From positions 1 through 28,722 of IMG/VR virus record IMGVR_UViG_3300020044_009235: a stretch of DNA of 28,722 nucleotides; one strand, written 5' to 3'. Within the stretch, counting starts at the first letter, position 1. The number at the start of each line of letters is the position of its first letter. The stretch is from a virus (lineage: Duplodnaviria; Caudoviricetes). The notes beneath the pieces are model-generated. The model made no database searches. It was not told the origin of the DNA and saw nothing but the letters and a program-made list of their open reading frames with translations. A program made the position numbers and the translations under genes. Below, in pieces: positions 105 to 27,138 of this stretch.

Positions 105-1111
105 TCGAGGTCAGCGGTGTCGATATAAAAAACACCACCCGGGAGGCGCGCCTTGGTGGCCTCTTTGTACCGGGTGGGAACTTGGAGGGGTGGATTGACC
201 ATGTAGTCAATCCCCTGCCCCTTGCGCAGTTGCTGGTGCTGGAGCTGCTTCACGTCCCCCAGGCACTCCATCCCGGGGCTGGTGCCGTAGACGTCGTTCC
301 CCGTCACCACCCAACGCGGGGCGAGCACCGGGAAGCGGTCGAACCCGGACTCGGACAGAAAGGTGTCGCCGCCGTCTTTCCCGGGCTCGAAGTAGATCGA
401 CGCGAAGGGCTTGTTCTTGCCGTCTCGCTTGGCGTAGTCGCGCTCTCGTCGGGGCTCGACGACGTGCAGCACGTCCACCCAGGCGTCGTAGTTGCACTGG
501 GTGTAGAGGCTTTTCACCGTGAGCGAGCAGTTCTCGAGCCCGAACTGACTGACCATCTGCCCGACCGTCATCTGGAACTCGCGCACCAGCGTGTCCACCT
601 CGCCCCGGTCGTTGGTGGCGATCGCGTACTCGCCGATCGTGAGGGGGTGGTGGTGGATCACGTTCTCGAAATCCGGCAGCACGACGGAGGCTGCGGTGCC
701 AAAGAGCCCCAGCTCCTCGTAGACCGAGTGCAGCGCGCGGTAGGTGTTGGACGCTGAGAAGATCCGGCGGATCAGTGCGGCGGTCTCGTGCAGCCAGGCC
801 TTGACGGCGCCGGACTCCATCAGATCCCGGTCCTCGATCTCCAGGCGAAACCACGGGCGCGCGGGGCTCGTGACCCCGCTCATCAGGCCGGCAGCCAGGG
901 TGCGTGCCCCGAAGACCGCGGCGTTGTCCAAAATGTGGTTCGCGCGCTTGTCGCCGCGGTTGCGATCGGTCGCGACAAAGCGCCCGGAGCGCGGCTGCTG
1001 GTAGTCCGAGATCTCACGCCAGTGCGTGATCCAGGAGGATCTCTCGGTCCAGAGCGCGCTCTTTCGCGAGAGCAGCTTCTGGCGGCGGTTGATCGGCGCA
1101 CCGTCGATCAA
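68..1111 (-). CDS. Portal / head-to-tail connector protein (BPP-1/T7-like), C-terminally truncated
   Basis: Motifs LAAGLMSGVTSPARPWFRL, GEVDTLVREF, PRWVVTGNDVYGTSPGMECLGDVKQLQ; 347 aa is short for this family. Confidence 0.88.
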   Translation of the reverse strand: MIDGAPINRRQKLLSRKSALWTERSSWITHWREISDYQQPRSGRFVATDRNRGDKRANHILDNAAVFGARTLAAGLMSGVTSPARPWFRLEIEDRDLMESGAVKAWLHETAALIRRIFSASNTYRALHSVYEELGLFGTAASVVLPDFENVIHHHPLTIGEYAIATNDRGEVDTLVREFQMTVGQMVSQFGLENCSLTVKSLYTQCNYDAWVDVLHVVEPRRERDYAKRDGKNKPFASIYFEPGKDGGDTFLSESGFDRFPVLAPRWVVTGNDVYGTSPGMECLGDVKQLQHQQLRKGQGIDYMVNPPLQVPTRYKEATKARLPGGVFYIDTADLDQVPTKGALGLL

Positions 1112-5568: not shown

Positions 5569-5754
5569 TCAGTGGCCCCCGACCAGCGCGAAGCACCGTT
5601 CGCAGGCTTTACCTGGTTGCTCCGGGTCACACGTGCAGGGCTGGCGCAGGATGTAGGTCCACATCTGCGCGGACTCCTGGCGCAGTTGCTCCAGCTCGGA
5701 TTTGAGGCAATGCAGGCACTCCTCCTGCGGGCACATGTGCAAACAGATGCTCAT
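5569..5754 (-). CDS. Small Cys-rich hypothetical protein (61 aa)
   Basis: ATG overlaps stop of the Cro-like gene (ATGA); CLHMC, CLHC, CTC, CERC motifs. Confidence 0.6.
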   Translation of the reverse strand: MSICLHMCPQEECLHCLKSELEQLRQESAQMWTYILRQPCTCDPEQPGKACERCFALVGGH

Positions 5755-6047
5755 GCCGCCACCTCGGTCAGACCCTCGGCCCGGGCGCCAAGGCACTTGC
5801 GCGCGTAGTCGCACTGCGCACAGGCATCTGCGAGATCGGTGCGGTAAATCCGTGGCAGCCGGCCCTTGGAGGCACGCGCCATCTCGGCCGTCACGCGCTC
5901 GATCTCGCCAGCGCGCTCGGCTGAGCACTGGCGGTGCCCGTTGGCGTATTGGTAAAGCGTGGCGCGGCTGGTGCCGACGCGCTCGGCTAACACGTGTTGT
6001 TCATCCGCGCTCGCGAGCGCGATCCAGATCTTCAGCGGGGAGCGCAT
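5751..6047 (-). CDS. Cro-like HTH regulator with C-terminal CxxC
   Basis: LAERVGTSRATLYQYANGHR HTH; divergent from the CI-like gene; start at ATG 6047 with AAGGA upstream. Confidence 0.8.
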   Translation of the reverse strand: MRSPLKIWIALASADEQHVLAERVGTSRATLYQYANGHRQCSAERAGEIERVTAEMARASKGRLPRIYRTDLADACAQCDYARKCLGARAEGLTEVAA

Positions 6048-6079: not shown

Positions 6080-6095
6080 TGTAGCAAACAGTACA
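6080..6095. promoter_or_regulatory. Operator TGTAGC-AAAC-AGTACA in the cro/cI intergenic region
   Basis: Matches palindromic consensus TGTAGC-N4-GCTACA; overlaps an extended -10 (TGcTACACT) on the minus strand. Confidence 0.7.
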
Positions 6096-6135
6096 CTGGT
6101 TGCAGCAAGTGCGTTGACCGTTTATGTTTGGCCCC

Positions 6136-6561
6136 ATGAGTGACCCCATCTACGACATCCGACTCCAGAACCTGCGACTGCTGATCCAGCAGTGGGAGGG
6201 GGCGACCACGCTGGCCAAAAAGCTCGGCCACGCGAACGCCTCCTACCTGGTGCAGTTGGCTGGCCCCAATCCCCGGCGCACCGTCTCCGAGAAGGTGGCG
6301 CGTGACATGGAAGAGAAACTCCGACTGCCGCCGCGCTGGATGGACGAGCCCCACGCCGATGCGCATCTGCACATCGATGATGCGTTTGTGCGCGAGTGCG
6401 TGTTGGCAGTGTCGGTGTGCATCCGTGACGCAGGTCTTGCGCTGGATCCCGAGGTAATTGCTACACTCACGTCACTTGCGTATGAACACGCAAGAGCAAA
6501 AGGAGAGGTCGACAAGGTCTTCATAACCGGCCTGTTGGACCTGACGAAAAAGAAACACTAA
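6136..6561 (+). CDS. CI-like phage repressor (no S24 peptidase domain visible)
   Basis: IRLQNLRLLI...TTLAKKLGHANASYLVQL...VSEKVARDMEEKLRLPPRWMD is a typical repressor N-terminal HTH. Confidence 0.82.
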   Translation: MSDPIYDIRLQNLRLLIQQWEGATTLAKKLGHANASYLVQLAGPNPRRTVSEKVARDMEEKLRLPPRWMDEPHADAHLHIDDAFVRECVLAVSVCIRDAGLALDPEVIATLTSLAYEHARAKGEVDKVFITGLLDLTKKKH

Positions 6562-6575
6562 CGGAGTGCGATTGC

Positions 6576-6740
6576 GTGAAAGATGGCATCAACGAGCTGA
6601 TTAGACAAAGGGCGCTGTATCTGATGGAATCCGAGAACCTGCTCTCGGATCCCGTGCTGATTTTGGCAAACCGCGTGCGCGTGCTCACCTGGGTGATCAC
6701 GGTGGCCACCGTCACACAAGTGGGTTTGCGACTGCTCTGA
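6576..6740 (+). CDS. Small protein with hydrophobic C-terminus (54 aa), co-oriented with the repressor
   Basis: Hand translation MKDGINELIRQRALYLMESENLLSDPVLILANRVRVLTWVITVATVTQVGLRLL; GGAG RBS at 6563-6566; stop immediately before a terminator. Confidence 0.6.
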   Translation: MKDGINELIRQRALYLMESENLLSDPVLILANRVRVLTWVITVATVTQVGLRLL

Positions 6741-6784
6741 CCCGGCGGGCTTGAAATTTTTTTCAGACTCGTCGGGTTTTTTTG
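6741..6784 (+). terminator. Rho-independent terminator of the repressor operon
   Basis: Stem CCCGGCGGGCTTGAAA/TTTCAGACTCGTCGGG followed by a T tract. Confidence 0.75.
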
Positions 6785-6816
6785 TTGACGGAGAATGTAG
6801 CAGCCGCTACATTCTT
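6785..6816 (+). promoter_or_regulatory. Sigma70-type early promoter with overlapping operator
   Basis: TTGACG-17 bp-TACATT; perfect inverted repeat AGAATGTAGC-AGCC-GCTACATTCT at 6793-6816. Confidence 0.85.
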
Positions 6817-6843
6817 CATCACCACACCACAGGAGCGCACGCC

Positions 6844-7104
6844 ATGCACCCCTTCACCCCCGTCGCCTTCACCGCCGTCGTTGTCGGCTTTGTCTGGGCC
6901 AGTCAGAGCGACTACCAGGCCGAGGTCGCCGCCGACCAGCATTACTGCGAGATGGTGGCGCTGCAGAAGCGCTGGATGCGGGAGCACCCGGGCGCGGTCG
7001 GGCGTGAGGCCGCACTGGCGCGACCGGGCTGGCCCGAGCATCGGTGGGATGTGGATTGCGAGCAGTTTGGGATTTTTTTCGACCAACAATTTAGCAGCCG
7101 CTAA
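6844..7104 (+). CDS. Hypothetical early protein with N-terminal hydrophobic segment
   Basis: AGGAG RBS before ATG 6844; N-terminal TM/signal-like stretch, YCEMV...GWP motif. Confidence 0.7.
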   Translation: MHPFTPVAFTAVVVGFVWASQSDYQAEVAADQHYCEMVALQKRWMREHPGAVGREAALARPGWPEHRWDVDCEQFGIFFDQQFSSR

Positions 7105-7107
7105 CTA
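7079..7107 (+). promoter_or_regulatory. Second, degenerate copy of the promoter/operator cassette
   Basis: TCGACC-17 bp-TAACTA containing TTTAGC-AGCC-GCTAAC, preceded by a T tract as at 6777-6813. Confidence 0.6.
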
Positions 7108-12321: not shown

Positions 12322-12491
12322 GCAACGACCTCTCCCGACAAGTCACGGCCGGCATGCGCCGGGGCACGGGCCGCGTGTTCTGCCAATACTGCAGGATCGA
12401 CAAGCCCGCAGACGAGATCGCCTGGCTGAAGCCTCGCGCCTGCTGCCTGAAGTGCCAGCACCGCGGCACCCGCCGGAGTGCTGACAGGTGA
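12318..12491 (+). CDS. Small zinc-ribbon protein (57 aa)
   Basis: Hand translation MSNDLSRQVTAGMRRGTGRVFCQYCRIDKPADEIAWLKPRACCLKCQHRGTRRSADR; 4-nt overlaps with both neighbours. Confidence 0.7.
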   Translation: MSNDLSRQVTAGMRRGTGRVFCQYCRIDKPADEIAWLKPRACCLKCQHRGTRRSADR

Positions 12492-13873
12492 CACGGCGCT
12501 ACGAGCCCCGCCCCTACGCCCAGCTCGCGATGGATCTGATGATCCGCGAGCCGCGGTGTGCGCTCTGGGCAAAGCCCGGCATGGGCAAGAGCGTGATGAC
12601 GCTCACCTTCCTCGAGCTCCTGCACAACGTGTACGGGGAGCGATCGCCGACACTGGTGCTGGCACCGCTCCGGGTCGCGCGCGACACCTGGTCGAACGAG
12701 GTCGACAAGTGGTCGCACCTGCACTGCGCGCTGGAGGTGGTGCCGATCTTGGGTTCCGATGTTGAACGCAGTCGCGCACTGCGCAAACCGGGTCAAATCT
12801 ACACCACCAACTACGAAAACTTGCCGTGGTTGAAGGACCAGTTCAAGGGGCGCCCGTGGCCCTTTGCAACGGTTGTCTGCGACGAGTCCACCAAGCTGAA
12901 ATCCTTCCGGCTCCGGCAAGGCGGCAAGCGCGCGCAGGCCTTGGCAGGCGTCGCTCACAAGGACGTCACCCGCTGGATCAATCTCACCGGCACTCCAGCC
13001 AGCAACGGCCTTGAGGATCTCTGGGGCCAGACGTGGTTTCTGGATTGCGGCCAGCGCCTGGGGCGCACGTTTAACGCATTCCGCGAGCGCTTCTTCCACC
13101 CCGTGTCAAACGGCGCATGGACCCGGTGGACGCCTCGCCCGGGCGCGCAGGAGGAAATCCAAGAGCGCCTGTCTGACATCTGCCTGACGCTGGACCCGGC
13201 CGACTGGTTCGATCTGTCGCAGCCCGTGACCAACACGATCGAGGTGATCCTGCCGGCGAAGGCGCGCACGCAGTACCGCGAACTCGAGCGCGAGCTGTTC
13301 ACCATGATCGCAGGCTCCGAGGTCGAGGCGCTGAACGCGGCGGCCAAGACTCAGAAGTGTTTGCAGCTCGCGAACGGCGCGGTCTACACCGACGGCACGG
13401 GCGCCTGGGCCGAGGCGCATACCGAGAAACTTGACGCGCTGGAAGAACTCGGCGAGGCCACGGGTGATGAGCCCCTCCTAGTCGCCTATCACTTCCAGTC
13501 GGATCGCGCGCGCCTGCTCTCGCGCTTCAGCGGTGCCATCGATCTTGCCACCCGCGAGGGTCTCGCGATGGCGCAGAGCGGGCGAGGCAAGTATTGGCTG
13601 GCACACCCGGCATCGGTCGGCCACGGCATCGACGGGCTGCAGAAGCACTGCGCGACGGTGGTGTTCTTCTCGCAGGACTGGAGCCTCGAGAACCACGACC
13701 AGTTGATCGAGCGGGTCGGCCCCATGCGTCAGATGCAGGCCGGGCTCAACCGGCCCGTGATGGTGCACTACATCGTGGCCAAGCAGACCGTGGACGAGCT
13801 CGTGATGGCCAGGCGCACGGGCAAGCGCAGCGTGCAGGACCTGCTGATGGACTACATGAAGGGAGCCCGGTGA
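12488..13873 (+). CDS. SNF2-family (SF2) helicase
   Basis: PGMGKS, VVCDESTKLK, LTGTPASNGLEDLWGQ, HPASVGHGID. Confidence 0.93.
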   Translation: MTRRYEPRPYAQLAMDLMIREPRCALWAKPGMGKSVMTLTFLELLHNVYGERSPTLVLAPLRVARDTWSNEVDKWSHLHCALEVVPILGSDVERSRALRKPGQIYTTNYENLPWLKDQFKGRPWPFATVVCDESTKLKSFRLRQGGKRAQALAGVAHKDVTRWINLTGTPASNGLEDLWGQTWFLDCGQRLGRTFNAFRERFFHPVSNGAWTRWTPRPGAQEEIQERLSDICLTLDPADWFDLSQPVTNTIEVILPAKARTQYRELERELFTMIAGSEVEALNAAAKTQKCLQLANGAVYTDGTGAWAEAHTEKLDALEELGEATGDEPLLVAYHFQSDRARLLSRFSGAIDLATREGLAMAQSGRGKYWLAHPASVGHGIDGLQKHCATVVFFSQDWSLENHDQLIERVGPMRQMQAGLNRPVMVHYIVAKQTVDELVMARRTGKRSVQDLLMDYMKGAR

Positions 13874-14648: not shown

Positions 14649-14702
14649 AGCACATGCTGTAAGTTGATTTCCCACCGTTTTATAGCTAAGTGTTTGCCTG
14701 AC

Positions 14703-14718
14703 TGTACTATTTGCTACA
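14703..14718. promoter_or_regulatory. Operator-like site TGTACT-ATTT-GCTACA
   Basis: 15/16 identical to the reverse complement of the 6080-6095 operator. Confidence 0.7.
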
Positions 14719-14742
14719 GTCAGAATATACATTATGCGTATC
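14715..14742 (-). other. dif-like attP site for XerCD recombination
   Basis: Minus strand GATACGCATAA-TGTATA-TTCTGACTGTA versus E. coli dif GGTGCGCATAA-TGTATA-TTATGTTAAAT: XerC arm 9/11, spacer 6/6, XerD arm 4/11. Confidence 0.85.
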
Positions 14743-14753
14743 AAAACGGTACA

Positions 14754-14812
14754 GTTGACTATCGCAGGTGCTAAATGCAATGTAGCAAGCACCAGCCACC
14801 TGCGAGGTCAAC
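14754..14812 (+). promoter_or_regulatory. Leader hairpin covering the RBS of the DUF3653 gene
   Basis: GTTGACTATCGCAGGTG (14754-14770) pairs with CACCTGCGAGGTCAAC (14797-14812), which contains GAGGT. Confidence 0.6.
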
Positions 14813-14814
14813 CT

Positions 14815-15276
14815 ATGCGCACCGTGAGAAAACAGCCAGTTAAGCAGTGGAAATGGATCGGTCCCCAACCGGTCCTTGAAGCAAACCGAAAGGCATGTAG
14901 CGATCTGAATGCCCTTATCGATCGTGAGGGATTGGTTTTGGTACAGCGTTTCCTGAATGTGACCGAGAAAACGCTCTGGCGCTGGTGCACCGGGCGAAAC
15001 CACATCCCCGGTCACCAGCACGTCGCGATCCAGTGCTATCTGGGCGAACTGCCCGGAACCGACGGCCAGTGGTCGGGCTGGTTTTTCAAAAAGGGGTTTC
15101 TCTGGAGCCCGGAGAATGTGAGCTTTACGGCCGGCCAGTTGCGCGCGGCACTCTACGACACCGACCGCATCACCGCGCTGACCCGCCAGGTCGAGGCGCT
15201 TCGGGTGAAGCTTGCCATCGCCGAGACCGCGCTCGATCGCTTCGCGCCCGCGGCCAATGACCGCAAGCGCGCATGA
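14815..15276 (+). CDS. HTH + DUF3653 protein, XafT-like Xer recombination activation factor candidate
   Basis: HTH VQRFLNVTEKTLWRWCTG followed by QWSGWFFKKGFLWSPENVSFTAGQL (DUF3653-like) and a coiled coil; adjacent to the dif-like site; GAGGT RBS. Confidence 0.75.
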   Translation: MRTVRKQPVKQWKWIGPQPVLEANRKACSDLNALIDREGLVLVQRFLNVTEKTLWRWCTGRNHIPGHQHVAIQCYLGELPGTDGQWSGWFFKKGFLWSPENVSFTAGQLRAALYDTDRITALTRQVEALRVKLAIAETALDRFAPAANDRKRA

Positions 15277-15282
15277 GCCCGA

Positions 15283-16470
15283 TCAGGTATCGACCACGAT
15301 GGTTTTCACCGTGCCGTCGCCGAACTTCACCTTCAGGTCACCGTCGGCGGTGTCCACGTAGAGCTGGGCCATGCCCGCGACGGTGTCCGGCGCGGTGATC
15401 CCGTCAGCGATGCCAAGTGCCCCCGAGGCGTAGGCCTCGAAGTACGTGGTGTCGGCCCGCATCCCGCGCAGAAAACTCCCCGTGCTGCGCTCGGTCTCGA
15501 TCTGCAGCGTCACCGGCGTGCCAGAGCCCGCGTTGCTGTCGACCACCCGCATCGCGGGTAGACTCGCGCCGCCTGCCACCAAGCGCTCGAAGATGAACGC
15601 GCCCGCCGCCGAGGCGTTTGCCGCACTGGCAAACTTCACCGCCGGCCCCGTGGTGCCGAAAGGGTCGATTGCCAGTGTGCGCGTGCCAGAGCCCGTCACG
15701 GTGCCGGTGACGTGGTGGTTGGCAATGAGTGCGGTCTCGCGCACGTTGGCGCTGCCGGTGTCGATGTTGGTCGTGTTGCCCTCGAAACGGCAGAACGCGA
15801 TCGTGTTGCGGTCGGCAAGCGCGCTCGAGGTACTGGTGATCGACACCCCCGTGGTGCCGGATTCGATCTGGCAGTGCGTCAGTTGGTTCTGGTTCGAGTC
15901 GGTGATGTTCCAGCCCGTGGTGCAGACGTTGGCGCGGCAGGCGAGGAAGGTGTTGGAGTTGCTGCCCGTGCCGCCGATCAGAAAGCCCGTGGTCGCATTG
16001 GCCGCGGTCACGTTGGTGAAGCGGTTGTACACACAGTAGCCGTTCGAGCCCGTGAGACTCACGCCCGTCGTGAAGCCGTCGATCACCACGTCCTCGATCA
16101 TGCTGGTCGAGACCGAGTCGAAATCCAGCCCGATCGTGCCAGTGCCGATGTCCTGGAGCTTCAGCGCCCGCACGCCGAGCCCGTAGACGCGCGTGCCAGG
16201 GGTTGACTGTACGACCGCTTGCGCAGCGCCCGTGTACTTCAGCACCGTCGCCTGCGGCCCGCGCCCCTCCAACTGCACGCCGCTGTAGAGCGTGAGCGCA
16301 CTGCCAAAACGGATGTTGCCGGCGGGCAGCGTGACCACCCCTCCCCCGGCGCTGTTCGCGGCGTTGATCGCCACCTGGATCGCGGCGGCGTTGTTGGTGC
16401 TGTCGTCGGCTTTGACGTCAGCGGCAAACACATGCGAGAGCTTGATGGCGTTCTCTGCGGCATTGCTCAC
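15283..16470 (-). CDS. Tailspike / pectate-lyase-like beta-helix protein (putative depolymerase)
   Basis: DDSTNNAAAIQVAINAA...GGVVTLPAG...VQLEGRG signature followed by N/T/G-rich beta-helix repeats. Confidence 0.85.
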   Translation of the reverse strand: MSNAAENAIKLSHVFAADVKADDSTNNAAAIQVAINAANSAGGGVVTLPAGNIRFGSALTLYSGVQLEGRGPQATVLKYTGAAQAVVQSTPGTRVYGLGVRALKLQDIGTGTIGLDFDSVSTSMIEDVVIDGFTTGVSLTGSNGYCVYNRFTNVTAANATTGFLIGGTGSNSNTFLACRANVCTTGWNITDSNQNQLTHCQIESGTTGVSITSTSSALADRNTIAFCRFEGNTTNIDTGSANVRETALIANHHVTGTVTGSGTRTLAIDPFGTTGPAVKFASAANASAAGAFIFERLVAGGASLPAMRVVDSNAGSGTPVTLQIETERSTGSFLRGMRADTTYFEAYASGALGIADGITAPDTVAGMAQLYVDTADGDLKVKFGDGTVKTIVVDT

Positions 16471-16486
16471 GGGTCATGGTGCTCCT

Positions 16487-16891
16487 TCAGCGGGTGGCGA
16501 CACCCTTGGATTTTTCAAACGTCCGCAAGCCCCCGATCCCGAGCATGCCGGTGATCACGACCCACAAAAGGTCTAGGTTCAGCTCGGGCGGTGTGGGCAG
16601 CTGATGCACGCTCGCGTACCAGGCAAGGAGTGGCTGCAGGATCGTGGCGTACACAAAGCCCGCGCACCCCGCCCAGCCAAAGCCCGGCCGCCAGCCGGCG
16701 ACAAAGACGCTCGCGTGCTGCGCCTCGCGCGCGTTGATCTCCAACTGGGCGATGACTTGTTTCAACTCCCCGTCGGCCGCCATGCGGATCAGCTCCATCT
16801 CCGCTTCGCGCTTCTTGTCAGGGTCCGGCACCCACCGATCGAGCAGCGTGCGGCCCATCTCGAGGATCGGGCCGAGAAGGATCGGGTTCAC
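16487..16891 (-). CDS. Holin (GTA-type 3TM holin family)
   Basis: QLEINAREAQHASVFVAGWRPGFGW...GMLGIGGLRTFEK; GTG start overlaps the endolysin stop. Confidence 0.85.
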   Translation of the reverse strand: MNPILLGPILEMGRTLLDRWVPDPDKKREAEMELIRMAADGELKQVIAQLEINAREAQHASVFVAGWRPGFGWAGCAGFVYATILQPLLAWYASVHQLPTPPELNLDLLWVVITGMLGIGGLRTFEKSKGVATR

Positions 16892-17277
16892 GGGAAGTAC
16901 CTCCGGTCGAGCTCGTGGTGCGGGCCGTCGGGGAAGGATTTCCAGTCCGCCCCGTGCACGAGCGGGACACCTAGCTCCTTCGACGCTTGGCGCATCGCCT
17001 CGATTACGGGGGTGAAGCTTGGCCACTTCCAGCAGATCGTGCCGCCCACGATCGGGGCAAGATCCACGGCGTGGCCGGTCAAGTGGCGCGAGAACATCGT
17101 CTTCGAGGCGCCGATCCGCACGAGCTCCGCCTGACGATCGCGCGTGCGCTTACCCTCGACCACTGCGAAGTCCACCTCGGAAATCTCGAGCGCGCGGCGC
17201 ACGACCTGCACCAGTTGCGGGTGCACCTCGGACAGGCGCTGCTCAGAGCGGGGGGAGAAGGCAAACGGGGCGGCCAT
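16888..17277 (-). CDS. Endolysin, M15-family (L-Ala-D-Glu type) peptidase
   Basis: VVEGKRT..RQ, SRHLTGHAVDL, DGPHHEL. Confidence 0.92.
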   Translation of the reverse strand: MAAPFAFSPRSEQRLSEVHPQLVQVVRRALEISEVDFAVVEGKRTRDRQAELVRIGASKTMFSRHLTGHAVDLAPIVGGTICWKWPSFTPVIEAMRQASKELGVPLVHGADWKSFPDGPHHELDRRYFP

Positions 17278-17915
17278 CACAGATCCTTGGCCAGAAAATA
17301 ATCGAAACCACCACTGTTGCTGAAACCCAAAAACAAGACACCGGGCTGCCCACTGGCAATGCGGTTTGAGGTGTCGGTGTCAGTCGCCGACAGGGTCAGA
17401 ACGTCGTTTACATACACCGAGATGGTGTATCCCGAAATCTCGGCTTTCACTTTGGAGTTCAGCGCTATCGGGCTTACGCCAGTATTGAGAATCGTATTTC
17501 CCGCAGTCGCATCAACCCGAATGATGGTAAGCGTTAAGTTGGGGTCCACTCGGATGGAATAACCCGAGTACCCATTCAGGGTTAGTGGATACGATGCCAT
17601 TCTCAAAAAGACCTGCGCCAACGGAGCGCTGCTTCCGCCGTTGAGATCTGTCGTTACCACTTCGACAGATTGGTTTGCGGAAAATGTTTTGGTAGCCGGA
17701 TTGACGATTACCGGCACGCTGGAGGCCGAGCTGCTCGCACCCACTGTCGTGAAAATATTGGACTTGACTTGCGCGGTGGCCCCGTAAGGGCCCGCGCCGA
17801 ACGCAGTTCCCGGTGGAAGGGTGATCCAGTCGCTTCCAACCGCACCATCGGCGCGATTGAAGGTATCCAAGAACTGCGTGTTGGCAGTCGTAAATCCCAC
17901 GTATACCGTACCCAT
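17277..17915 (-). CDS. Hypothetical beta-rich (lectin/ConA-like) tail-associated protein
   Basis: DTFNRADG N-terminal motif, beta-strand-rich; follows the tail fibre; lower GC than neighbours. Confidence 0.6.
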   Translation of the reverse strand: MGTVYVGFTTANTQFLDTFNRADGAVGSDWITLPPGTAFGAGPYGATAQVKSNIFTTVGASSSASSVPVIVNPATKTFSANQSVEVVTTDLNGGSSAPLAQVFLRMASYPLTLNGYSGYSIRVDPNLTLTIIRVDATAGNTILNTGVSPIALNSKVKAEISGYTISVYVNDVLTLSATDTDTSNRIASGQPGVLFLGFSNSGGFDYFLAKDL

Positions 17916-19092: not shown

Positions 19093-22000
19093 TCAGGGGT
19101 TCTTGCTCTCGGGGCTTGCCGTGCCGGTCACCAGGCCTCGAGCCGCGTCCACGGGGCCAGTGGGCTCGATCTTGCCTTGGGCAACCCCTGCCGCGTAGCC
19201 CAGGGGTCGGGCGAGCGTCATGGCCGGGAGCCCCGTTGCCAACGTGATCAGCGCCGACATATCGCGCACGGCCTTCTGTGCACTGCCCTCGTCGACGATC
19301 GCCTTGTACACACTTTGCGGCGCGGCGGCAGCGGACTCCAGCACGGAGACCGTGGGCGAGAGGCTGAACCGGTCATCGGCCGGGTTGTCGTTGAAACGGT
19401 TCACCATCGACTGGCCGATCTGTGCGATACCCGGCACGCCTGAGAGAATCCCGCGGATGGTGCCAAAGCCGAACACGGCCGCGAGCCAGTCGTCCAGGTA
19501 ACCGTCGTCATCCTCATCCTCTGGCCCGCCGCGCATCGCGTGCGCAATCACCTCGGCCACCCAGATCGGGATCATCATCCCCACCATCAGCACGCCGAAG
19601 GCCTTGCCCGCGCCCTTGCGCAGCCCCTGCTCCTGGGCGATCTGCTGGATCGCCGTGGCGTTGGTGTTGGCGAGCATGTTGAAGTAACCCACGAACTGCG
19701 TGAACGCGCGCGCGAATGCCGTCCCGGTCTCGATCCGGCTCACATCCTCGGGGAGCGTGGAGCCCTGTGTTTGGCGGATCACGCCGTCTGCAAAGCGCCG
19801 GGCCATACGATCGCCCATGCCCTCTACCAGCGCCTGGTTGTAGGCGCCCGTCCAGATGATGGGCGACATCTGGTTGTCCATCCCCGTCTGCAAAAAGTAG
19901 GCGTGGCGGCGCGTGAAGCGCTCGGAGCTCTCGTAGACGCTGGGGTTCAGGAGGATCGCCTCCAGCGTGTCGGAGAGCACCGCGACTTCGTTGCTGGCGC
20001 GATCGGCCATGTAGGGCGAGAGCGACCAAACAGTGTTCTTCAGTTGCTGGGGGTCGGCGATGTACTGCGCCACGGCCCGGCGGATATGGCTGCCCTTCAC
20101 CTTCAAGAGCGCCGTCGAGAAGCCCGTGATCTGCTGCAGGGTGTTGCTCACGTTAGCAAGCATCAGTGCCATGCCCGTGCGGGCGCGCGCCTGGGAGAGC
20201 ATACGGTTCAAACCGGCGTCGGCCGAGACCGGGGTCTCCACCGTCTGGCGCGCGGAACGGTTCAGCCAAGGCTTCAGCATCCCGTTGATGGCAGCCGGGT
20301 CGATCTTGTTCAGCGCCTGGGCGATCTTCTTGCGGCGCAGCAGGCGATCGACGCCGCGCACCGCGGGCTCCATGTGCGAGAACAGCAGCACCTTGTCGAT
20401 GTGCTGGGGCAGTGTGCGAAGGTCGAGTTTCAGCGGCCGGTTGTACTCCACGCGCCCCTTGGTGAAGCCCTTGTTGGTGGCCGGGAAGGCGTAGCTCATG
20501 CCCGCGTTCTCCGTCTCCAGGAGCTCGCGCTGGTCGGCATCCTGTACCAGCAGCGGATCGGCCTGCGCGGGCACATAGCCCCCGCGGTAGGTGCCGAAGG
20601 GCGTCTGGACCTCGTTTGCCGTGACCTCGGCAAAGTAGCGCCCGAAGACATCGCGGTGCGTCTTTTGCGCCAGCGGTTTGGTTTCCTCCATCAGATCCCA
20701 GACGCCCTGCGCGAAGTCGTAGTGCGCCTTGGTGAGCGTGCCCTCGGTGATCAGGCGCGCGATGAAGGCATCCCAGCGCGAGGTGTCGAGCGTCCCGTCG
20801 GGGTTCTCGGTGGCCCACTCCCTGCCCAGCAGGAGCTTGCGCTTGTTGGAGTCGTTGCCGGTGTGCAGGATCGCGTGCAGCACTTCGGCCATGCCGATGC
20901 CGTTGTGCCCGCGCCCGAAGGTGTAGTCGAGCTCGGGTGCGGCAATGAGGGTCTTGGCCATCGTGGGCTCGATCGCATCGACCAGTGCCTGGAACTTGCG
21001 CCGATAGACCAGACGGTCGGCGCGGTAGCGGTCGGCGGCGATCTTGACGGGCTGGAAGATGAACCGCAGGAACGGACCGCCGAAGGCGCCGTCCTTTGCC
21101 TCGGCCCACTGCTCGACGCGGCGCAGAATCGCCGGGGCCTGCTGCAGCCAGTTGCGCTTGCGGATCTCGGCATCGGTCAGCGCACCCTTCTCGCCGGGCA
21201 GCACGTCGGGGATCCCGATGTCCTCCATCCGGGCGTAAAGCTGATCGGCCAGATCCTCGAGATCCAGCAGATCGCCGTCGATCTCCATTTGCCGGGAGCG
21301 CTTGGCCAGATGCCAGAGGGACTTCAGCTCATCGGTGAGCCCCCTCACCTCCTCCACCGTCAGCTCGCTGAAGGGCTTCGCGTTGGCCAGCGCGGTGTTC
21401 ACGCCGGGGGCGATCACGGCGTACATCGCAGGATCGTTCTTCTGCACGAGCTCGAGGTACTCCATCGCACCCTTGCCCGTGCGAGGCGCGATGCCGTAGA
21501 CGCCCAGGATCGCGCGCATGGCGTTCACCACGTCGGGGTCACGGCCACCCTTGACCAGTTTCTCGTTGTTGCCCTTGGTGACCTTGCGGAAGAACTCGAT
21601 CGCAGCGCGCACCTCGGTCTGCGCATCGAGCAGTGCGCGCACGGCCTGGTTGTTCAAGAGTTGGTCTTTCTTCGCCTGCACGGCAGCCTGTGTGTCGCCC
21701 TTCTGCGTGGCCGTCTGCCAGGCTCGGCCGGCACGGGCCTCGGCGGCACGGTGCAGGTAGATCGCATTCTTGAGCTTACCCACCGCGCGCCGGGCTGCGA
21801 GGTCTGCGCCAAATGCTCGCGCGGCCTCGACCAGGGCGTTCACGGTGATCGGGCGACCGCGGGCATCGGTGCGACCCGTGGTCTCGCGGGGGTTCATCGC
21901 CTCGTTCTGGGACTTCAGTTCTGCAGCCAGTGCCCGGGCCCGGGCCTCGTTGTGCACGGCCTCGTTGGCGGCAGCCTCCAGCGCCTCCTGCGTGGCCATG

Positions 22001-25000
22001 TCACCGTGGCGCTCCAGCATGCGCCGATCGACCTCGGCCTCGACCGCCTCGTTCACCGGGCCGAGCGCCGTGACGGCGGCCGTCATCTCCTCGACCGTGG
22101 GGTAGCCCGTGGCATCCGCGATCGCGGCGATCTTGGCATCGCGCTCTGCGCCGTCTTTGTTCCGCACCTTGCGGATGGCGCGCGCAGCGATCACCTCGGG
22201 CTTGGTCTCGAACTCCCCCATCACCTCGGCCAGCACGCCCTTGCGCAGATCGCGCGCCTCCTTGGTGAACTGCTTCAGGAACTTGGAGCGGGCGTTCAGG
22301 GTCCACTTCAGCGCGCGCATGCTGCGCTCCTGCAGGCGCTCAAGGGCTTCGTTGGTGGCATCAAACTCGGGCAGCAGGCCTGCCTGCTCCTCGGCCTGCG
22401 CGATCTGCTCGTCGGTCGCGAGCATACGGTCGAAGACCTGGCGGATCTCGTCATTGACCTCGAGGTTGCGCCCGCGCATGAAGTCCGAAAGGGACTTGTA
22501 GACGTTCACCAGCCAGGAGCGGAACCGGCGGAACAGGGGTTGGAGCTCGGTGCTGGGGGCTTTGCCTTCCAGGAGGTACTGCTCGAAGGACTCTGCCCAC
22601 TTCTCGTGGTGCTCGCGCTTCTGGTCGAGCGTGTAGGTGTTCCAGGTGGCGAGATCCGGCACGCCGAACCACGCGAGCGCGCGGTTCATGTCATCGACGA
22701 CCTGCTGGGGTGCGTCGGGGCGGGACGCCAGGTCTGCCATCACCTCAAGGAAAAAGTGACCGGACTCGTGCAGGAAGGTCGAGAGATCCGCGCTCTCGCC
22801 CAGGCTGATCAGGAGCGTCTGGGGGTTGAAGGTGCCGCGGGGGCTTTGCTGGTTCTGGTAGAACTGGTCGCGGATCGCAACGTCGTCGCCGCTGAACACG
22901 ACATAGTTGAAGGTGCCGTCGCCTGCGTTCCGACTGGTGCCGTCGAGATATTTAATGCCTTTGATGCCAAACTCTGCGAGCCACTGGGAAGCGGCGCGGT
23001 CGTTCCCCTGCAGGCGACTGATTGCCTTGTATAGTTCCTCACCCAGTGGGTTGAGGGCCAGAATATTCTGACCACTGGCGTTTGGAATTTCGCCATCTTC
23101 CAGTGCCTTGCGCACGTTTTCCGGTTGCTCAGAGAGCGGCTTATCCCAGAGCAGCATCTCGCTGTCCTCGGGGATGTCGACTTCGTAGAGTTGGCCGCCG
23201 CGCTTGATCTTGTCGTAGTTGAGCCGATTGATTTCACGCCGGAGCGCAGCGGAGTTGTCATACCCGGCAGCATCGTCAAGCGCTCCGGCCTTGTCACCCT
23301 GCCAAGACCATAGCAGTTCGACCGCCGTGCGCTGCGCGGATTCACCCTTTACCGGCTTGCCGTCATACTCAAACGCGCCAGCGCCTAACTTCTCTCGATA
23401 GAACTCAGCGATCTCCCGCTTGCCGGCGAAGTACAACCCCCAGCCGTAGGCCTGGGCGCCCTCGCCCGTGCCGATGAAGTCGGTGCTGAATTTGTCGATA
23501 CCACGGGCGGGGGTGCCGTGGTAGGCGGGTTGGGCTAGCTCTCCGTTTGCAGTCTGAGCGGCATCGTTTCCGCCAGCTCCGCGTCCAGAGGTTCTTCCCA
23601 TCCCGCCATTTTGATATAGCTCTCCCGTGTTACCGGGCGACCCTGCGCCATCAAGGCCTGCTCGATCGGATCTGGCCCAGGCTGGGTCGGGTATCCCATC
23701 CGAGAGCCGGAGGAGTTCTTGTCGGGTTTCATCAAGGGATCTGGCGCCGTCATGGTACTCTCTCCAGAGGGCAGTCAACGGGTGTCCGGCGTTGCTGGTG
23801 CTTTTGAGCGACCGATTATACGCCGCTTTGAATGTTGGCTTGAATAGCGACCGAACGGCTTCCCATGTAATTGACTGCATCTCGCGAGGCAGAAGGCCGA
23901 CCTCTGCAGCGGCTCTGCGATAGGCCTCGGCATATACAGGGTATGTTCCCTTGATGCCTGTCTTTGAGTCAGAACCCCCTGTGCCGAGGTTGTGCTGAAC
24001 AAAAGGGGATGAGCCGGCCAACGGAAGCAGCAGACCTGCAGCCACCGCGTGCGTGTCAATTGTAACGCTGCCGTCAGGTGAGGTCGGGTCGTAGATGTTG
24101 TTGTAGAAGTTTCTGACCTTGTGCGCAGCGCCAAGCGCATCGCTGATATTCGCCATTGTCCCGTCGCGCAGCACCGAAATGGACTTCGCAATCGGGCCAA
24201 AACCATTTGCCCATGAGCCCTTGATGGGGGCACCACTATCAGTGCGCATGATCTCGCCAAAGTCACCTTCTGGCGTAACCAGCAAATAGTCTCTGGAGTT
24301 GTTGGCAAGGTCGTATGCAGCAACCCAGAATGCCCGCTCAAGGTCGCTGCTAAGTTCAGACAGCTTTTTTCCGGTTACGGCTGCCAGTACAACCGCATTC
24401 CCGTTCTCTTCGCTGATCATGGCCGTGCGCTGCGCGGCCTCGGTCATGCGGTCGTCCCATACCGTGTCTTGCTGGGTGTCCCATATTTCAATGGCACGAG
24501 TTGCAAGTGCGACGTTCAGGAACCAGTCCATCTGCGGCGATAGCGCCGCAATTGCTGCCGATAACTGGACGTCGGAGTATCGGCCTTCGTATTGCTCTTC
24601 CAGTCGATCGACAATGACTCGGGCACCGTCATACCAAAGTTTCGCGCGTGCGCGGATGTCTGGGGTGAACTGGTCGTGCAACCAGATGAGGTTTGATTTG
24701 ATCTGCTCTATGTAGTCCTCAAGCTGTTCCTCTGCCGTTGCGGCGGTGCTTGTCCGAAGAGAGGGGATCTCGCGCATCCTCTCGGCAAACTTTTCCAGCA
24801 GAGCGGGGTTTCTGCGAGCCGCGTCCATGTTGACGACAAGCTGCTCATCAAAATGATTTTCTTCAGGCCTCACAGCCCACGGAACGCGCGTGCTGACCGA
24901 CTGATTCAACACGTCCCCTGATGCTGAAAGTCCAATTTTTGCAGGATTTAGCGGCCCGTCCGCCCTTTCACCGCCATCAAAGTATTTGATCTCCACAGGT

Positions 25001-27138
25001 AGAGATCTCTCTCCGCGTTCTGCGGCAACCATAATTCTGTGATTGCCTTCGCTGATCCAAGCCTCACCGTTGTATGCGACTTCGATGTAAGGGGCCTGCT
25101 TGCTGACTTGATCCCAGTTGTTTCGGATGTACTCAAGCGATTCGGAGCGAACATTGTCTTGCTCGCCACGCTGGCCCTTTAAAGACCGAAGAGTGTCGAT
25201 GCTTACGTTGACAGGTTTTGCCTCGCGAACGCTTGCAGTGATTTTCCCCATATATGGGACGCCCCATTCATTGCGCCCCTTAGCCTTTGCGTAATCCACT
25301 TGCTCGGCAAGCCAAGCATCATTTGGCACATCAATTTTGAGTTGAGATGTCTGGGTAGCATCGCTCCCCGCATTCAGCACCGCCCCCTGCCCCGCCTGCG
25401 CGCCGACCTTGAGCGAGAACTGGTCGTAGAGCTGGGTGGGCGTCATGCCCGTGCGCGAGGCCATCGTGCTGAAGAACGCCGACTGCAGGCGCGCGTAGGC
25501 CTCGTTCGCGTCCGACGTGAAGCGCCCCGCCTGGTCGAGCTGGGTCTTGATCGTGTCGCGGACGGTGTCGACCTCGGTCTGCCAGGCGCTCTGGTCCTGT
25601 GCCTGCTGCAGGACGCGCTCGGCTTCCTGCTCGATGAATTGCTTGCCTTGTTCTGCGATCTGCGAGGCTTCCGCCAGACTCCAGGCGTTCTCGCTGGTGC
25701 GGGCGTTCTGGAGAAAGAGCTCCTCGAGCGGCGTGCCGGGAATGGCGGCGAGCACTTCCCCGAGGGGCAGCTCGACCACGGTGTTCAGCGCAAGCGCGTC
25801 CTCCATCTGCGCAGCCGCGGAGGGAAAGCTCTGGGCGATGTCGATCCCCGACTGCGCCAGTACCTCTGCGTCCATGAAGATCGATTCGGTTGCGCCCTCG
25901 CGCTGCGCAAGGTCTTGCATAGCGCTGGCAAAGTCCTGCGGGGCGTGCGCCCGCATCTGCACCATCGAGGCCGCGGCAAAGACGTTCTGCAGTTGCCGGG
26001 CACTCGCTTCGGCCTGTCCCATCTGGTCAGCCGTGCCGGCAATCTTGTTCAGCGTCGCCACCGCGCCGCCGGTGATAAGGCTCTGCGTGAGCGTTGACAC
26101 CAGCGTGTCGTAGGCGGCACCAGGTCGCTCGGCAAAGAACTCGGGCCACGTCTTGTCGGGGTTGGCGACGGCGGTGTCGATGGCATCCTGCAGGAAGGTC
26201 GCCACCTGCTCGGTCGGCACCTCGCGCGCGATCAGCCCTGCGAGGAACTCGCCGACACCGCGCTTGCCGAGGGAGTCGGTCAGGAATTTGGTCGGGAGGA
26301 GCTCGGTCGCGACCTCGACCGCGCCCTCCCCCGTGGCACCGAGGAAACTCTCAAGGGGCGCACCCCCGCGGGTGCGGTATTTGCCGTAGGCCTCGGCTTG
26401 GGTCTGCACACCCATCGTCGCCAGCATTGGCGTGGGGCTGCGGGTTGCGATCGATGCGGCAAGGCCGGGCAAGGTGCGGAGCGTGCTCTCCACGCCGCCA
26501 TAGATCGCACGACCCGTGCGGCTCTCGATGTTGGGCCGCGTGAAGTCTGAGGCGGACTGCGATTGCGCGATCTTGCGCGCGAGATCCGCATCCTCGACGG
26601 GATCGGGCTGCACGAGCCCGGCCCATTGCAGGAAGTCCCGCATCTGGCCCTGCATGCCGCGCCGAGCCATCTCCAGCCCCTGGGGCATGGAGGCGGCGAG
26701 GCCTCGGGCAATGTTCTCAAAGGTCGGCTCGGGGCCTTTGAATGCTTTGATCGTGCCGTGCACGTCGACCAGTGCCGAGGCGTCTTTCTGCGCTTTGGCA
26801 GCAAAGAGCGGGGCGTAGCGGAAGTAGTCCCCGATGAGGGGGTCGACTTCCAGGGCGCGCGCGGTCTCCGCGACCGAGCTCTCGCGCTTCAACTGATCAA
26901 AGTTGCGCAGTGCTACATCCGGCGGCAGCCCTGTTGCAAATGCAAGCTGGCTTGCCTGCGAAGCACGAATCGCATCTGTGCCCATGGCGCGGCGGATCTG
27001 CGCACGCAGGAGCGCGTCGTCCGTGGCGACCGCTCGGGCGGGGTCAAACGCCCGGGAAGCGTCACCGGCAGAGTCTGTGCTGGGATCGAATTCGTCAGGG
27101 GCGTCAACGGGAACGGCGTTGCTCGGATCGAAACTCAT
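19093..27138 (-). CDS. Giant internal virion/ejection protein, polyvalent (ParB-like, VTIDTHA domain, ART-like, zincin motif)
   Basis: 2681-aa ORF in the core-protein position; EGNHR, VTIDTHA...MQSITWEAVR, YHGT...GEGAQAYGWGLYFA...NYVVF and FLHESGH motifs. Confidence 0.88.
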   Translation of the reverse strand: MSFDPSNAVPVDAPDEFDPSTDSAGDASRAFDPARAVATDDALLRAQIRRAMGTDAIRASQASQLAFATGLPPDVALRNFDQLKRESSVAETARALEVDPLIGDYFRYAPLFAAKAQKDASALVDVHGTIKAFKGPEPTFENIARGLAASMPQGLEMARRGMQGQMRDFLQWAGLVQPDPVEDADLARKIAQSQSASDFTRPNIESRTGRAIYGGVESTLRTLPGLAASIATRSPTPMLATMGVQTQAEAYGKYRTRGGAPLESFLGATGEGAVEVATELLPTKFLTDSLGKRGVGEFLAGLIAREVPTEQVATFLQDAIDTAVANPDKTWPEFFAERPGAAYDTLVSTLTQSLITGGAVATLNKIAGTADQMGQAEASARQLQNVFAAASMVQMRAHAPQDFASAMQDLAQREGATESIFMDAEVLAQSGIDIAQSFPSAAAQMEDALALNTVVELPLGEVLAAIPGTPLEELFLQNARTSENAWSLAEASQIAEQGKQFIEQEAERVLQQAQDQSAWQTEVDTVRDTIKTQLDQAGRFTSDANEAYARLQSAFFSTMASRTGMTPTQLYDQFSLKVGAQAGQGAVLNAGSDATQTSQLKIDVPNDAWLAEQVDYAKAKGRNEWGVPYMGKITASVREAKPVNVSIDTLRSLKGQRGEQDNVRSESLEYIRNNWDQVSKQAPYIEVAYNGEAWISEGNHRIMVAAERGERSLPVEIKYFDGGERADGPLNPAKIGLSASGDVLNQSVSTRVPWAVRPEENHFDEQLVVNMDAARRNPALLEKFAERMREIPSLRTSTAATAEEQLEDYIEQIKSNLIWLHDQFTPDIRARAKLWYDGARVIVDRLEEQYEGRYSDVQLSAAIAALSPQMDWFLNVALATRAIEIWDTQQDTVWDDRMTEAAQRTAMISEENGNAVVLAAVTGKKLSELSSDLERAFWVAAYDLANNSRDYLLVTPEGDFGEIMRTDSGAPIKGSWANGFGPIAKSISVLRDGTMANISDALGAAHKVRNFYNNIYDPTSPDGSVTIDTHAVAAGLLLPLAGSSPFVQHNLGTGGSDSKTGIKGTYPVYAEAYRRAAAEVGLLPREMQSITWEAVRSLFKPTFKAAYNRSLKSTSNAGHPLTALWREYHDGARSLDETRQELLRLSDGIPDPAWARSDRAGLDGAGSPGNTGELYQNGGMGRTSGRGAGGNDAAQTANGELAQPAYHGTPARGIDKFSTDFIGTGEGAQAYGWGLYFAGKREIAEFYREKLGAGAFEYDGKPVKGESAQRTAVELLWSWQGDKAGALDDAAGYDNSAALRREINRLNYDKIKRGGQLYEVDIPEDSEMLLWDKPLSEQPENVRKALEDGEIPNASGQNILALNPLGEELYKAISRLQGNDRAASQWLAEFGIKGIKYLDGTSRNAGDGTFNYVVFSGDDVAIRDQFYQNQQSPRGTFNPQTLLISLGESADLSTFLHESGHFFLEVMADLASRPDAPQQVVDDMNRALAWFGVPDLATWNTYTLDQKREHHEKWAESFEQYLLEGKAPSTELQPLFRRFRSWLVNVYKSLSDFMRGRNLEVNDEIRQVFDRMLATDEQIAQAEEQAGLLPEFDATNEALERLQERSMRALKWTLNARSKFLKQFTKEARDLRKGVLAEVMGEFETKPEVIAARAIRKVRNKDGAERDAKIAAIADATGYPTVEEMTAAVTALGPVNEAVEAEVDRRMLERHGDMATQEALEAAANEAVHNEARARALAAELKSQNEAMNPRETTGRTDARGRPITVNALVEAARAFGADLAARRAVGKLKNAIYLHRAAEARAGRAWQTATQKGDTQAAVQAKKDQLLNNQAVRALLDAQTEVRAAIEFFRKVTKGNNEKLVKGGRDPDVVNAMRAILGVYGIAPRTGKGAMEYLELVQKNDPAMYAVIAPGVNTALANAKPFSELTVEEVRGLTDELKSLWHLAKRSRQMEIDGDLLDLEDLADQLYARMEDIGIPDVLPGEKGALTDAEIRKRNWLQQAPAILRRVEQWAEAKDGAFGGPFLRFIFQPVKIAADRYRADRLVYRRKFQALVDAIEPTMAKTLIAAPELDYTFGRGHNGIGMAEVLHAILHTGNDSNKRKLLLGREWATENPDGTLDTSRWDAFIARLITEGTLTKAHYDFAQGVWDLMEETKPLAQKTHRDVFGRYFAEVTANEVQTPFGTYRGGYVPAQADPLLVQDADQRELLETENAGMSYAFPATNKGFTKGRVEYNRPLKLDLRTLPQHIDKVLLFSHMEPAVRGVDRLLRRKKIAQALNKIDPAAINGMLKPWLNRSARQTVETPVSADAGLNRMLSQARARTGMALMLANVSNTLQQITGFSTALLKVKGSHIRRAVAQYIADPQQLKNTVWSLSPYMADRASNEVAVLSDTLEAILLNPSVYESSERFTRRHAYFLQTGMDNQMSPIIWTGAYNQALVEGMGDRMARRFADGVIRQTQGSTLPEDVSRIETGTAFARAFTQFVGYFNMLANTNATAIQQIAQEQGLRKGAGKAFGVLMVGMMIPIWVAEVIAHAMRGGPEDEDDDGYLDDWLAAVFGFGTIRGILSGVPGIAQIGQSMVNRFNDNPADDRFSLSPTVSVLESAAAAPQSVYKAIVDEGSAQKAVRDMSALITLATGLPAMTLARPLGYAAGVAQGKIEPTGPVDAARGLVTGTASPESKNP
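23535..23753 (-). CDS. Small gene overprinted in an alternative frame of the giant protein
   Basis: GGAGAG RBS before ATG 23753; 72 aa with DPIEQAL...PVTRESYIKMAG...DAELAETMP; host frame is low-complexity here. Confidence 0.6.
   Translation of the reverse strand: MTAPDPLMKPDKNSSGSRMGYPTQPGPDPIEQALMAQGRPVTRESYIKMAGWEEPLDAELAETMPLRLQTES

Follow-up and report, generated by a model that had tools for sequence, protein, structure and literature searches.

How a tailed phage with an apparent lysogeny switch and no integrase might enter a host chromosome is the question raised by this locus. The window, that is, the whole 28,722-nucleotide stretch of DNA analysed (IMG/VR record IMGVR_UViG_3300020044_009235), is by its gene content a BPP-1/BcepC6B-like podophage of the Caudoviricetes, with a virion presumably of that form. 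Shared with BPP-1 and BcepC6B is the gene order portal, terminase, primase-helicase, exonuclease, SSB, polymerase, SNF2 helicase, tail spike, holin and endolysin, and the replication and head genes (SNF2, Bbp16, portal) are homologous; SNF2 helicase identity is 52% to BPP-1 and 49% to BcepC6B. The BPP-1-like features matched were portal, terminase, HK97-type capsid GP7, Bbp16, T7-like internal proteins and the gene order itself, the capsid being found in relatives and absent from the window contig. The phages differ after the helicase, where the replication and lysis arms meet: BPP-1 reads helicase-xis-int and BcepC6B helicase-HTH-int, both with a tyrosine integrase, whereas the window phage carries in this slot a dif-like site and a gene for an HTH-DUF3653 protein (Table 1). 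BPP-1 has no DUF3653 match, and no dif-like site was found in the parts of the BPP-1 and BcepC6B genomes examined. Elsewhere, window positions 19093-27138 encode a virion protein of 2681 aa that contains DUF7178 and a segment resembling an endolysin; it is 23-40% identical in one relative (L001) whose replication genes are 93-98% identical, indicating a swapped module.

The sequence-only reading had seen no tyrosine or serine recombinase here, which was borne out, as there was no PF00589 match in the window and no recombinase among its 34 ORFs. Because the window contig is only 63% complete, the absence of an integrase was judged from relatives: PF00589 was matched in 0 of 13, including 0 of the 10 that were at least 90% complete (four with terminal repeats), while the controls BPP-1 and BcepC6B were both detected. 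Lack of an integrase of its own is part of the IMEX definition, and was thus found in all 10 near-complete relatives. The 149 ORFs of 140-900 aa in two complete relatives yielded capsid, Bbp16, portal and T7-like internal proteins, and no recombinase, transposase, partition protein (ParA/ParB) or plasmid Rep.

Table 1. Positions in the window of the features discussed (domain positions are residues of the 153-aa protein)
Feature	Position	Strand	Basis or remark
Cro-like HTH protein	5751..6047	-	Pfam YdaS/HTH_3; phrog_35
Divergent 145-aa ORF in cI position, candidate repressor	6124..6561	+	BPP-1 synteny; E=0.03 vs BPP-1 cI
Three palindrome copies in the immunity/early region (6080..7105)	6080-6095, 6796-6811, 7090-7105		
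SNF2 helicase, the replication arm's final large gene	12488..13873	+	Integrase downstream of it in BPP-1 and BcepC6B
Operator-like palindrome TKTAGC-N4-GCTAMA, 2 mismatches	14703..14718		Shares 4 bp with the outer end of the XerD arm
dif-like attP	14715..14742	-	Motif search; conserved in relatives
Degenerate XerD arm TTCTGACTGTA	14725-14715	-	T1, T2, T4 and G5 kept
Spacer TGTATA	14731-14726	-	Identical to dif spacer
XerC arm GATACGCATAA	14742-14732	-	9/11 vs E. coli consensus
Putative gene promoter, TTGACT at 14755-14760	14755..14790	+	Read by eye
XafV/XafT-family gene, 153 aa	14815..15276	+	Pfam, profiles, model
Domains: XRE-type HTH; DUF3653 beta-hairpin; long C-terminal helix	~22-75; 80-105; 106-152		Sequence and model
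Tail spike, holin, endolysin; end of the convergent late arm, bounding the slot	15283..17280	-	Annotation

The dif-like site reported earlier proved to be as described, with a good XerC arm, a perfect spacer and a poor XerD arm. On the minus strand, positions 14742 to 14715 read GATACGCATAA TGTATA TTCTGACTGTA, the 11-6-11 architecture that the IMEX definition demands of a dif-like attP. The XerD arm matches E. coli dif at only 4 of 11 positions, and it likewise matches 4 of 11 positions of the dif in a bacterial locus (L098). Nowhere else in the window does a 19-nt dif motif match at up to three mismatches, and none of 100 shuffles had any such match; an identical XerC arm was found in dif-like sites of bacterial genome contigs. 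The gene said to lie about 70 bp from the site begins 72 bp away, with an ATG at 14815 preceded by a GAGG box.

An HMM check of this gene was expected to reveal DUF3653, and residues 80-130 do match the Pfam model (E=1.5e-4), at 22.3 bits just under the cut-off of 22.4; nine of 12 close homologs match as well. A profile search collected 1127 representatives at E<=0.001, and DUF3653 is listed for 63 of the 77 relatives scanned, which were taken from the best 150 of the 1127. In the structure model (pLDDT 75) a beta-hairpin lies between the HTH and a helix of 47 residues; its fold is matched by generic XRE HTHs and by two uncharacterised proteins, both from uncultured tailed phages. Among solved structures none was related by sequence or fold except generic HTHs, and no GenBank phage matched the window protein. 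A broad profile built from phage proteins and representatives scored 34.7 bits (E=9e-13) against XafV, the VGJphi ORF136 product, spanning HTH and DUF3653, with a top shuffle of 8.6; a phage-only profile scored 13.1 bits (top shuffle 7.5), and pairwise BLAST of the window protein itself against XafV was not significant (E=2.9). On these profile scores the family of the window protein is homologous to XafV, a tested activator, and it has the traits of the activator family, an XRE HTH fused to DUF3653 in a gene beside attP. The sequence-only reading had called the gene XafT-like; its place beside attP and its homology to a Xer activator stand, with the sequence link reaching XafV only. The pTLC record gave no DUF3653 match, and no intact copy was found. 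Complex prediction for two copies of the protein with a Burkholderiales XerD scored 0.04, a value that speaks neither for nor against an interaction.

When the phage profile was applied to bacterial genomes, 35 of 50 loci had a dif-like site no more than about 1.5 kb away (a few of the loci overlap), compared with 0 of 29 xerD control loci. DUF3653 genes near dif have been reported from 51 species (PMC6744903). The annotated bacterial matches comprised an inovirus (L098), two double-jelly-roll phages (L355 and L357), lone genes beside dif, and elements of 0.8-2 kb bounded by attL and attR; another contig (L356) ends after the gene and a holin. L355 and L357 are phages with a PM2 P2-type capsid from outside Vibrio that carry DUF3653-like genes and dif-like sites. 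The 0.8-2 kb elements at bacterial dif are candidate mini-IMEXs, in which a DUF3653-like gene lies between an attL with a degenerate XerD arm and an intact dif (L249 947-1869, L250 833-3018, L252 310-1173, L254, L256, L258, L306, L309, L310, L311 and L314; some in tandem). A mirror layout, with the gene on the XerD side of dif and a second site made of a degenerate XerC arm and a good XerD arm, was seen in L237 (1399-2639), L241 (1408-2693) and L369 (9648-16128).

The anatomy of the XerD arm suggests how such a site might be used. Base G5 is present in 20 of 20 distinct phage arms and T1 in 11, while each of the outer six positions matches dif in only 0-3 of the 20; the arms share descent, so that these are not 20 independent tests. 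Four further sites lack G5 and all have T1T2 (three in L393, one in L271/L378). In V. cholerae libraries, the arms recovered through XafT-driven integration had G5, or else T at both positions 1 and 2, and FtsK-driven integration required TTATG at the inner XerD arm (PMC9226527). No TTATG inner arm occurs among the 20 distinct phage arms. The phage sites thus have the TLC-type features of a dsDNA attP, a spacer identical to that of dif and a degenerate XerD arm with G5 or T1, and this anatomy fits the activator route, G5 being the base needed by XafT-driven integration. As the sequence link is only to XafV, which works via XerC-initiated reactions, it is from the site anatomy that we infer activation of XerD by the window protein. 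Some variants stand apart: L393 (7444-9049) has three sites with a different XerD-arm set, suggesting a second cassette type, and in L017 (5280-5830), L022 (9495-10010), L044 and L384 (3243-3766) genes that read in translation as HNH-like directly follow the site. These accompany the altered spacers TGATAA, TACATA, TGATTA and TAGATA, a combination that could reflect either homing into attP or a fit to hosts whose dif spacers differ.

The arrangement is conserved across the clade. Protein searches of IMG/VR returned 25 loci at 35-99% identity, some of them near-duplicates, and in all 25 a dif-like site lies upstream on the opposite strand, 48-1486 bp off and in constant orientation, with an SNF2 gene upstream in all 25 and a variant spacer in three. 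Metagenome contigs added 19 good loci, mostly from the same phages. Including DNA-pattern scans, 131 loci were assembled; the helicase is present in 107, and 104 of these have the site, in 48 distinct contexts, a count that is partly circular because the DNA patterns demand it. None of these 104 has the site in the opposite orientation. A sample led by SNF2 instead, the best 80 of at least 582 confirmed matches to a query weighted to the window's clade, contained 17 phages with gene and site, three with the site only and one with the gene but a variant site. Another 13 had an integrase-like match, and the remaining 46 showed neither module nor integrase, including 18 whose contigs were of insufficient length for a call. 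Module and integrase never occurred together in these best 80 (21 with gene and/or site, 13 integrase-like). In a helicase tree (FastTree, midpoint root) all module carriers fall in one clade of 33 tips with support 0.93, which also contains two integrase phages, three short contigs and six members with no gene, intact site or integrase within 5 kb. Module and integrase are alternatives, swapped or lost. A few phages have the site with no gene detected (L207, L271/L378, L186). Close relatives that have lost the gene (L380, with a decayed site, L383, and L416, with a Mom-like gene in the slot) are candidate lytic derivatives. Other viral contigs that carry none of the clade's genes (L177, L189 and L204; GC 0.45) also have a dif-like site whose XerD arm is degenerate; a DUF3653 gene was not detected in them.

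In nine of the 48 contexts, and in two short contigs, the site is present as two or three direct repeats, and these relatives carry one or two gene cassettes at the spacer; the other 39 contexts have a single site and no cassette. The XerC and XerD arms that make up a single site in close relatives lie apart in L013 and L032, where 1438 and 426 bp respectively interrupt the site at its spacer, and insertion at this position points to active recombination. Each cassette begins with the XerC arm, followed by a promoter-like stretch with an operator and then by co-oriented genes, and a conserved stretch of 120 bp, containing a hairpin and the arm GACCGAGGCGG, closes most of them; IHF-like boxes, judged by consensus, were found in 11 of 14 cassette ends, whose sequences are related. 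No such ends were found in 190 bacterial loci. L274 is identical to L278/L299 on the XerD side and diverges from the XerC arm onward, and among pairs at least 90% identical on the XerD side 19 of 24 are unrelated beyond the promoter. L278/L299 was considered as an attL and rejected, being the same phage with another cassette. Most cassette genes belong to no family; those that do encode a Vut transporter, N6/N4 methylase, 3'-5' exonuclease and Mom, and the Vut transporter is accompanied by a gene that by reading resembles preQ0-type modification genes (no Pfam match). Genes including Mom, a C5 methylase and Acb2/Tad1 also lie between site and activator gene with no second site; the Acb2/Tad1-family anti-defence gene is at 9249-9473 of L020.

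It is likely, judging from the structure of the arrays, that the cassettes are loaded by the same Xer reaction as would serve integration; whether they arrived by direct insertion or by co-excision out of a dif array, the resulting structure would be identical. Small gene units bounded by Xer-type sites and set in tandem at one platform are familiar from the pdif modules of Acinetobacter plasmids and from integron arrays. The phage sites differ from these in being directly repeated with a constant degenerate XerD arm and hairpin, each phage cassette has a promoter with a phage operator, and the platform is an attP. An integron has an IntI integrase and attC cassettes, whereas no tyrosine recombinase was found here and the cassette ends are dif-like, so that the platform might at most be said to work like an integron.

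An operator-like palindrome connects the site with the phage's immunity region. The copy at the XerD arm is part of a 9-bp inverted repeat (14698-14723), for which a terminator reading was rejected, as there is no U-tract and the core is the palindrome of the immunity region. Another copy (14760-14775) lies in the putative promoter, at which a promoter scan made no call. At up to two mismatches the window has seven copies (three in the immunity/early region, one at the XerD arm, one in the putative promoter and two elsewhere), where chance predicts 1.3 and 0 of 100 shuffles reached seven. At up to three mismatches the palindrome was found in 26 of 30 XerD-side and 46 of 46 XerC-side flanks, against 4.8 and 2.8 in shuffles, an enrichment that is partly expected as the motif was derived from the same sequences. 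Five complete genomes have it near both site and early region. The palindrome is read as a putative repressor operator. The cI/cro switch described in the sequence-only reading holds up for the Cro-like HTH protein, which has a Cys-rich tail (CAQC..C) that is a possible zinc site; its cI half is less firm, as the ORF at 6124-6561 has no Pfam match, and its position and slight similarity to BPP-1 cI hint weakly at a cI-type repressor. XafT is undetectable once TLC has integrated (PMC9226527). By analogy, a phage repressor could impose the same shut-off and, in addition, guard attL. Both the operators and the cassette arrays go beyond what had been noticed earlier.

A near-canonical XerD arm, the sign of attL or attR, occurred in 0 of 48 distinct att contexts, all of them free form. 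It had been predicted that related prophages would be found split at this site beside dif. No integrated copy turned up in a GTDB protein scan; a GTDB DNA-pattern scan gave, among the matches listed, mostly native dif sites and none with clade phage genes; and four partly overlapping genome searches (301, 401, 400 and 401 genomes) contained no clade prophage. With one genome per species, 10-13 candidates scored per genome and the host not identified, these searches are weak evidence of absence. Contigs from four sequencing runs contained no junction at the site, and one ends at 14740, which by itself is no sign of a junction. The proposal of Xer-based lysogeny accordingly keeps its attP and DUF3653 gene in the integrase slot, its integrase-less clade and its signs of recombination, and lacks an attL/attR junction; with no prophage of the clade recovered in integrated form, insertion at host dif is the part that we infer.

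We think it probable that the phage lysogenises by having host XerC and XerD recombine its site with the chromosomal dif, aided by the phage's own activator. After infection the promoter lying immediately past the XerC arm would drive the activator gene. XerC would bind the good arm, and the activator, predicted to turn on Xer without FtsK, would help to build and fire the synapse despite poor XerD binding; the identical 6-bp spacer would permit full crossover by a TLC-like route, with an XafV-like, XerC-first route as the alternative. In the lysogen, repressor bound to the palindromes would silence the gene and, abutting the degenerate XerD arm of attL, would block excision until induction. 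Small promoter-bearing cassettes would enter the site by the same reaction, either directly or via co-excision from a tandem array at dif. In sum the locus has the anatomy of a TLC/VGJ-type IMEX and may work like one, integration being the predicted part. A broader scheme, plausible and offered tentatively, is that the clade swapped its integrase for host XerCD and its own activator, that repressor operators at the XerD arm gate integration and excision, and that attP may serve as an integron-like dock for travelling, repressor-controlled cassettes, the cargo then comprising a DNA methylase, preQ0-type modification genes, Mom and an exonuclease.

Other uses of the same module were weighed. Host Xer might act at the site in cassette capture, in resolution of phage multimers or in both, with the phages lytic or episomal and no chromosomal integration. 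All recombination products observed are indeed cassette insertions, all 48 att contexts are free with no prophage found, and the phage encodes its own polymerase and primase-helicase. We regard this as unlikely, given that most contexts (39 of 48) are single sites with no cassette, that neither ParA/ParB nor plasmid Rep was found among the 149 ORFs of the two complete relatives, that the module was never seen together with an integrase in the SNF2-led best 80, and that the bacterial homologs sit in attL/attR-flanked elements at dif; viral metagenome contigs are also probably biased toward free genomes.

If the site is an attP, the protein might still be a transcription regulator or DNA-binding factor, with integration proceeding through basal XerC activity or FtsK. 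PSB15, a DUF3653 protein of Xanthomonas inoviruses, offers a precedent, in that its target is the packaging signal and integration does not need it (bioRxiv 10.1101/2024.03.19.585677), and the XRE-like HTH, solved-structure matches to HTH regulators only, and phages that retain the site with no gene detected fit the same picture. PSB15, however, has no fused HTH and packages ssDNA hairpins, whereas the window phage has a terminase and portal, the HTH-DUF3653 fusion matches XafV, and the TTATG needed for FtsK-driven integration is missing from all 20 distinct arms, making this role quite improbable. Hardly credible is that the module is a defunct relic acquired from an inovirus or double-jelly-roll IMEX: the clade does show losses, frameshifts and HNH insertions, but with proteins only 35-50% identical the inner XerC arm has still been kept, as have the spacer, G5, the orientation and the operators, and cassette content differs between phages whose XerD sides are identical. 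Activator-aided integration by host XerCD is the reading we retain.

The closest known systems resemble this one in different parts. The TLCphi satellite has a dsDNA attP with a good XerC arm, the dif spacer and a degenerate XerD arm keeping T1/G5, an HTH-DUF3653 gene (xafT) on the XerC side and no integrase (PMC6744903, PMC9226527); it is a small rolling-circle satellite, whereas the clade described here consists of tailed phages of 42-46 kb with polymerase, portal and terminase, and the accessible portions of both accounts describe no XerD-arm operators or cassette arrays. The inovirus VGJphi has a homologous HTH-DUF3653 protein beside attP (136 vs 153 aa), and its XafV raises Xer integration through XerC-initiated reactions, yet failed to integrate attP-TLC (bioRxiv 10.64898/2026.06.12.731946). 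The VGJphi att region lacks the TGTATA dif spacer that the window phage has. Dif-type double-jelly-roll prophages of Vibrio are dsDNA phages that can also grow lytically, with a xafT homolog and a dif-like attP as the substitute for an integrase and with the module adjoining lysis genes and a variable region; unlike the window phage they are tailless, with small genomes and documented prophages, and for their variable regions the accessible text describes no dif-bounded cassettes (PMC12715192). Legionella phage LME-1, a T7-like podophage (PMC12407071), integrates at dif via the single recombinase XerL (PMC9765430), and so is a short-tailed phage at a chromosome dimer-resolution site that uses a host Xer recombinase. 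LME-1 differs in its XerL-only system, a 22-bp att identical to dif and no known activator, a point on which the paper takes no position (PMC9765430), compared with an XerCD-type site and a DUF3653 gene in the window. The suggestion that Xer exploitation is little described for tailed phages must be narrowed on this account, as a tailed phage at dif is already in print; for XerCD with an activator it stands, no tailed phage of this kind and no phage-borne dif cassettes having been found in literature of partial coverage.

If this reading is correct, tailed phages would join satellites, inoviruses and tailless phages as users of activator-driven XerCD hijacking, and some tailed genomes with no integrase would have been wrongly called lytic. 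XafT acts reversibly, and direction control in TLC-type elements is described as an open question (PMC6744903); operators over the XerD arm would be a concrete, testable answer to it. The cassette arrays suggest that phages may gain DNA-modification genes by site-specific recombination with no recombinase of their own, and the dozens of natural attP variants in this clade would provide a ready test set for Xer activation.
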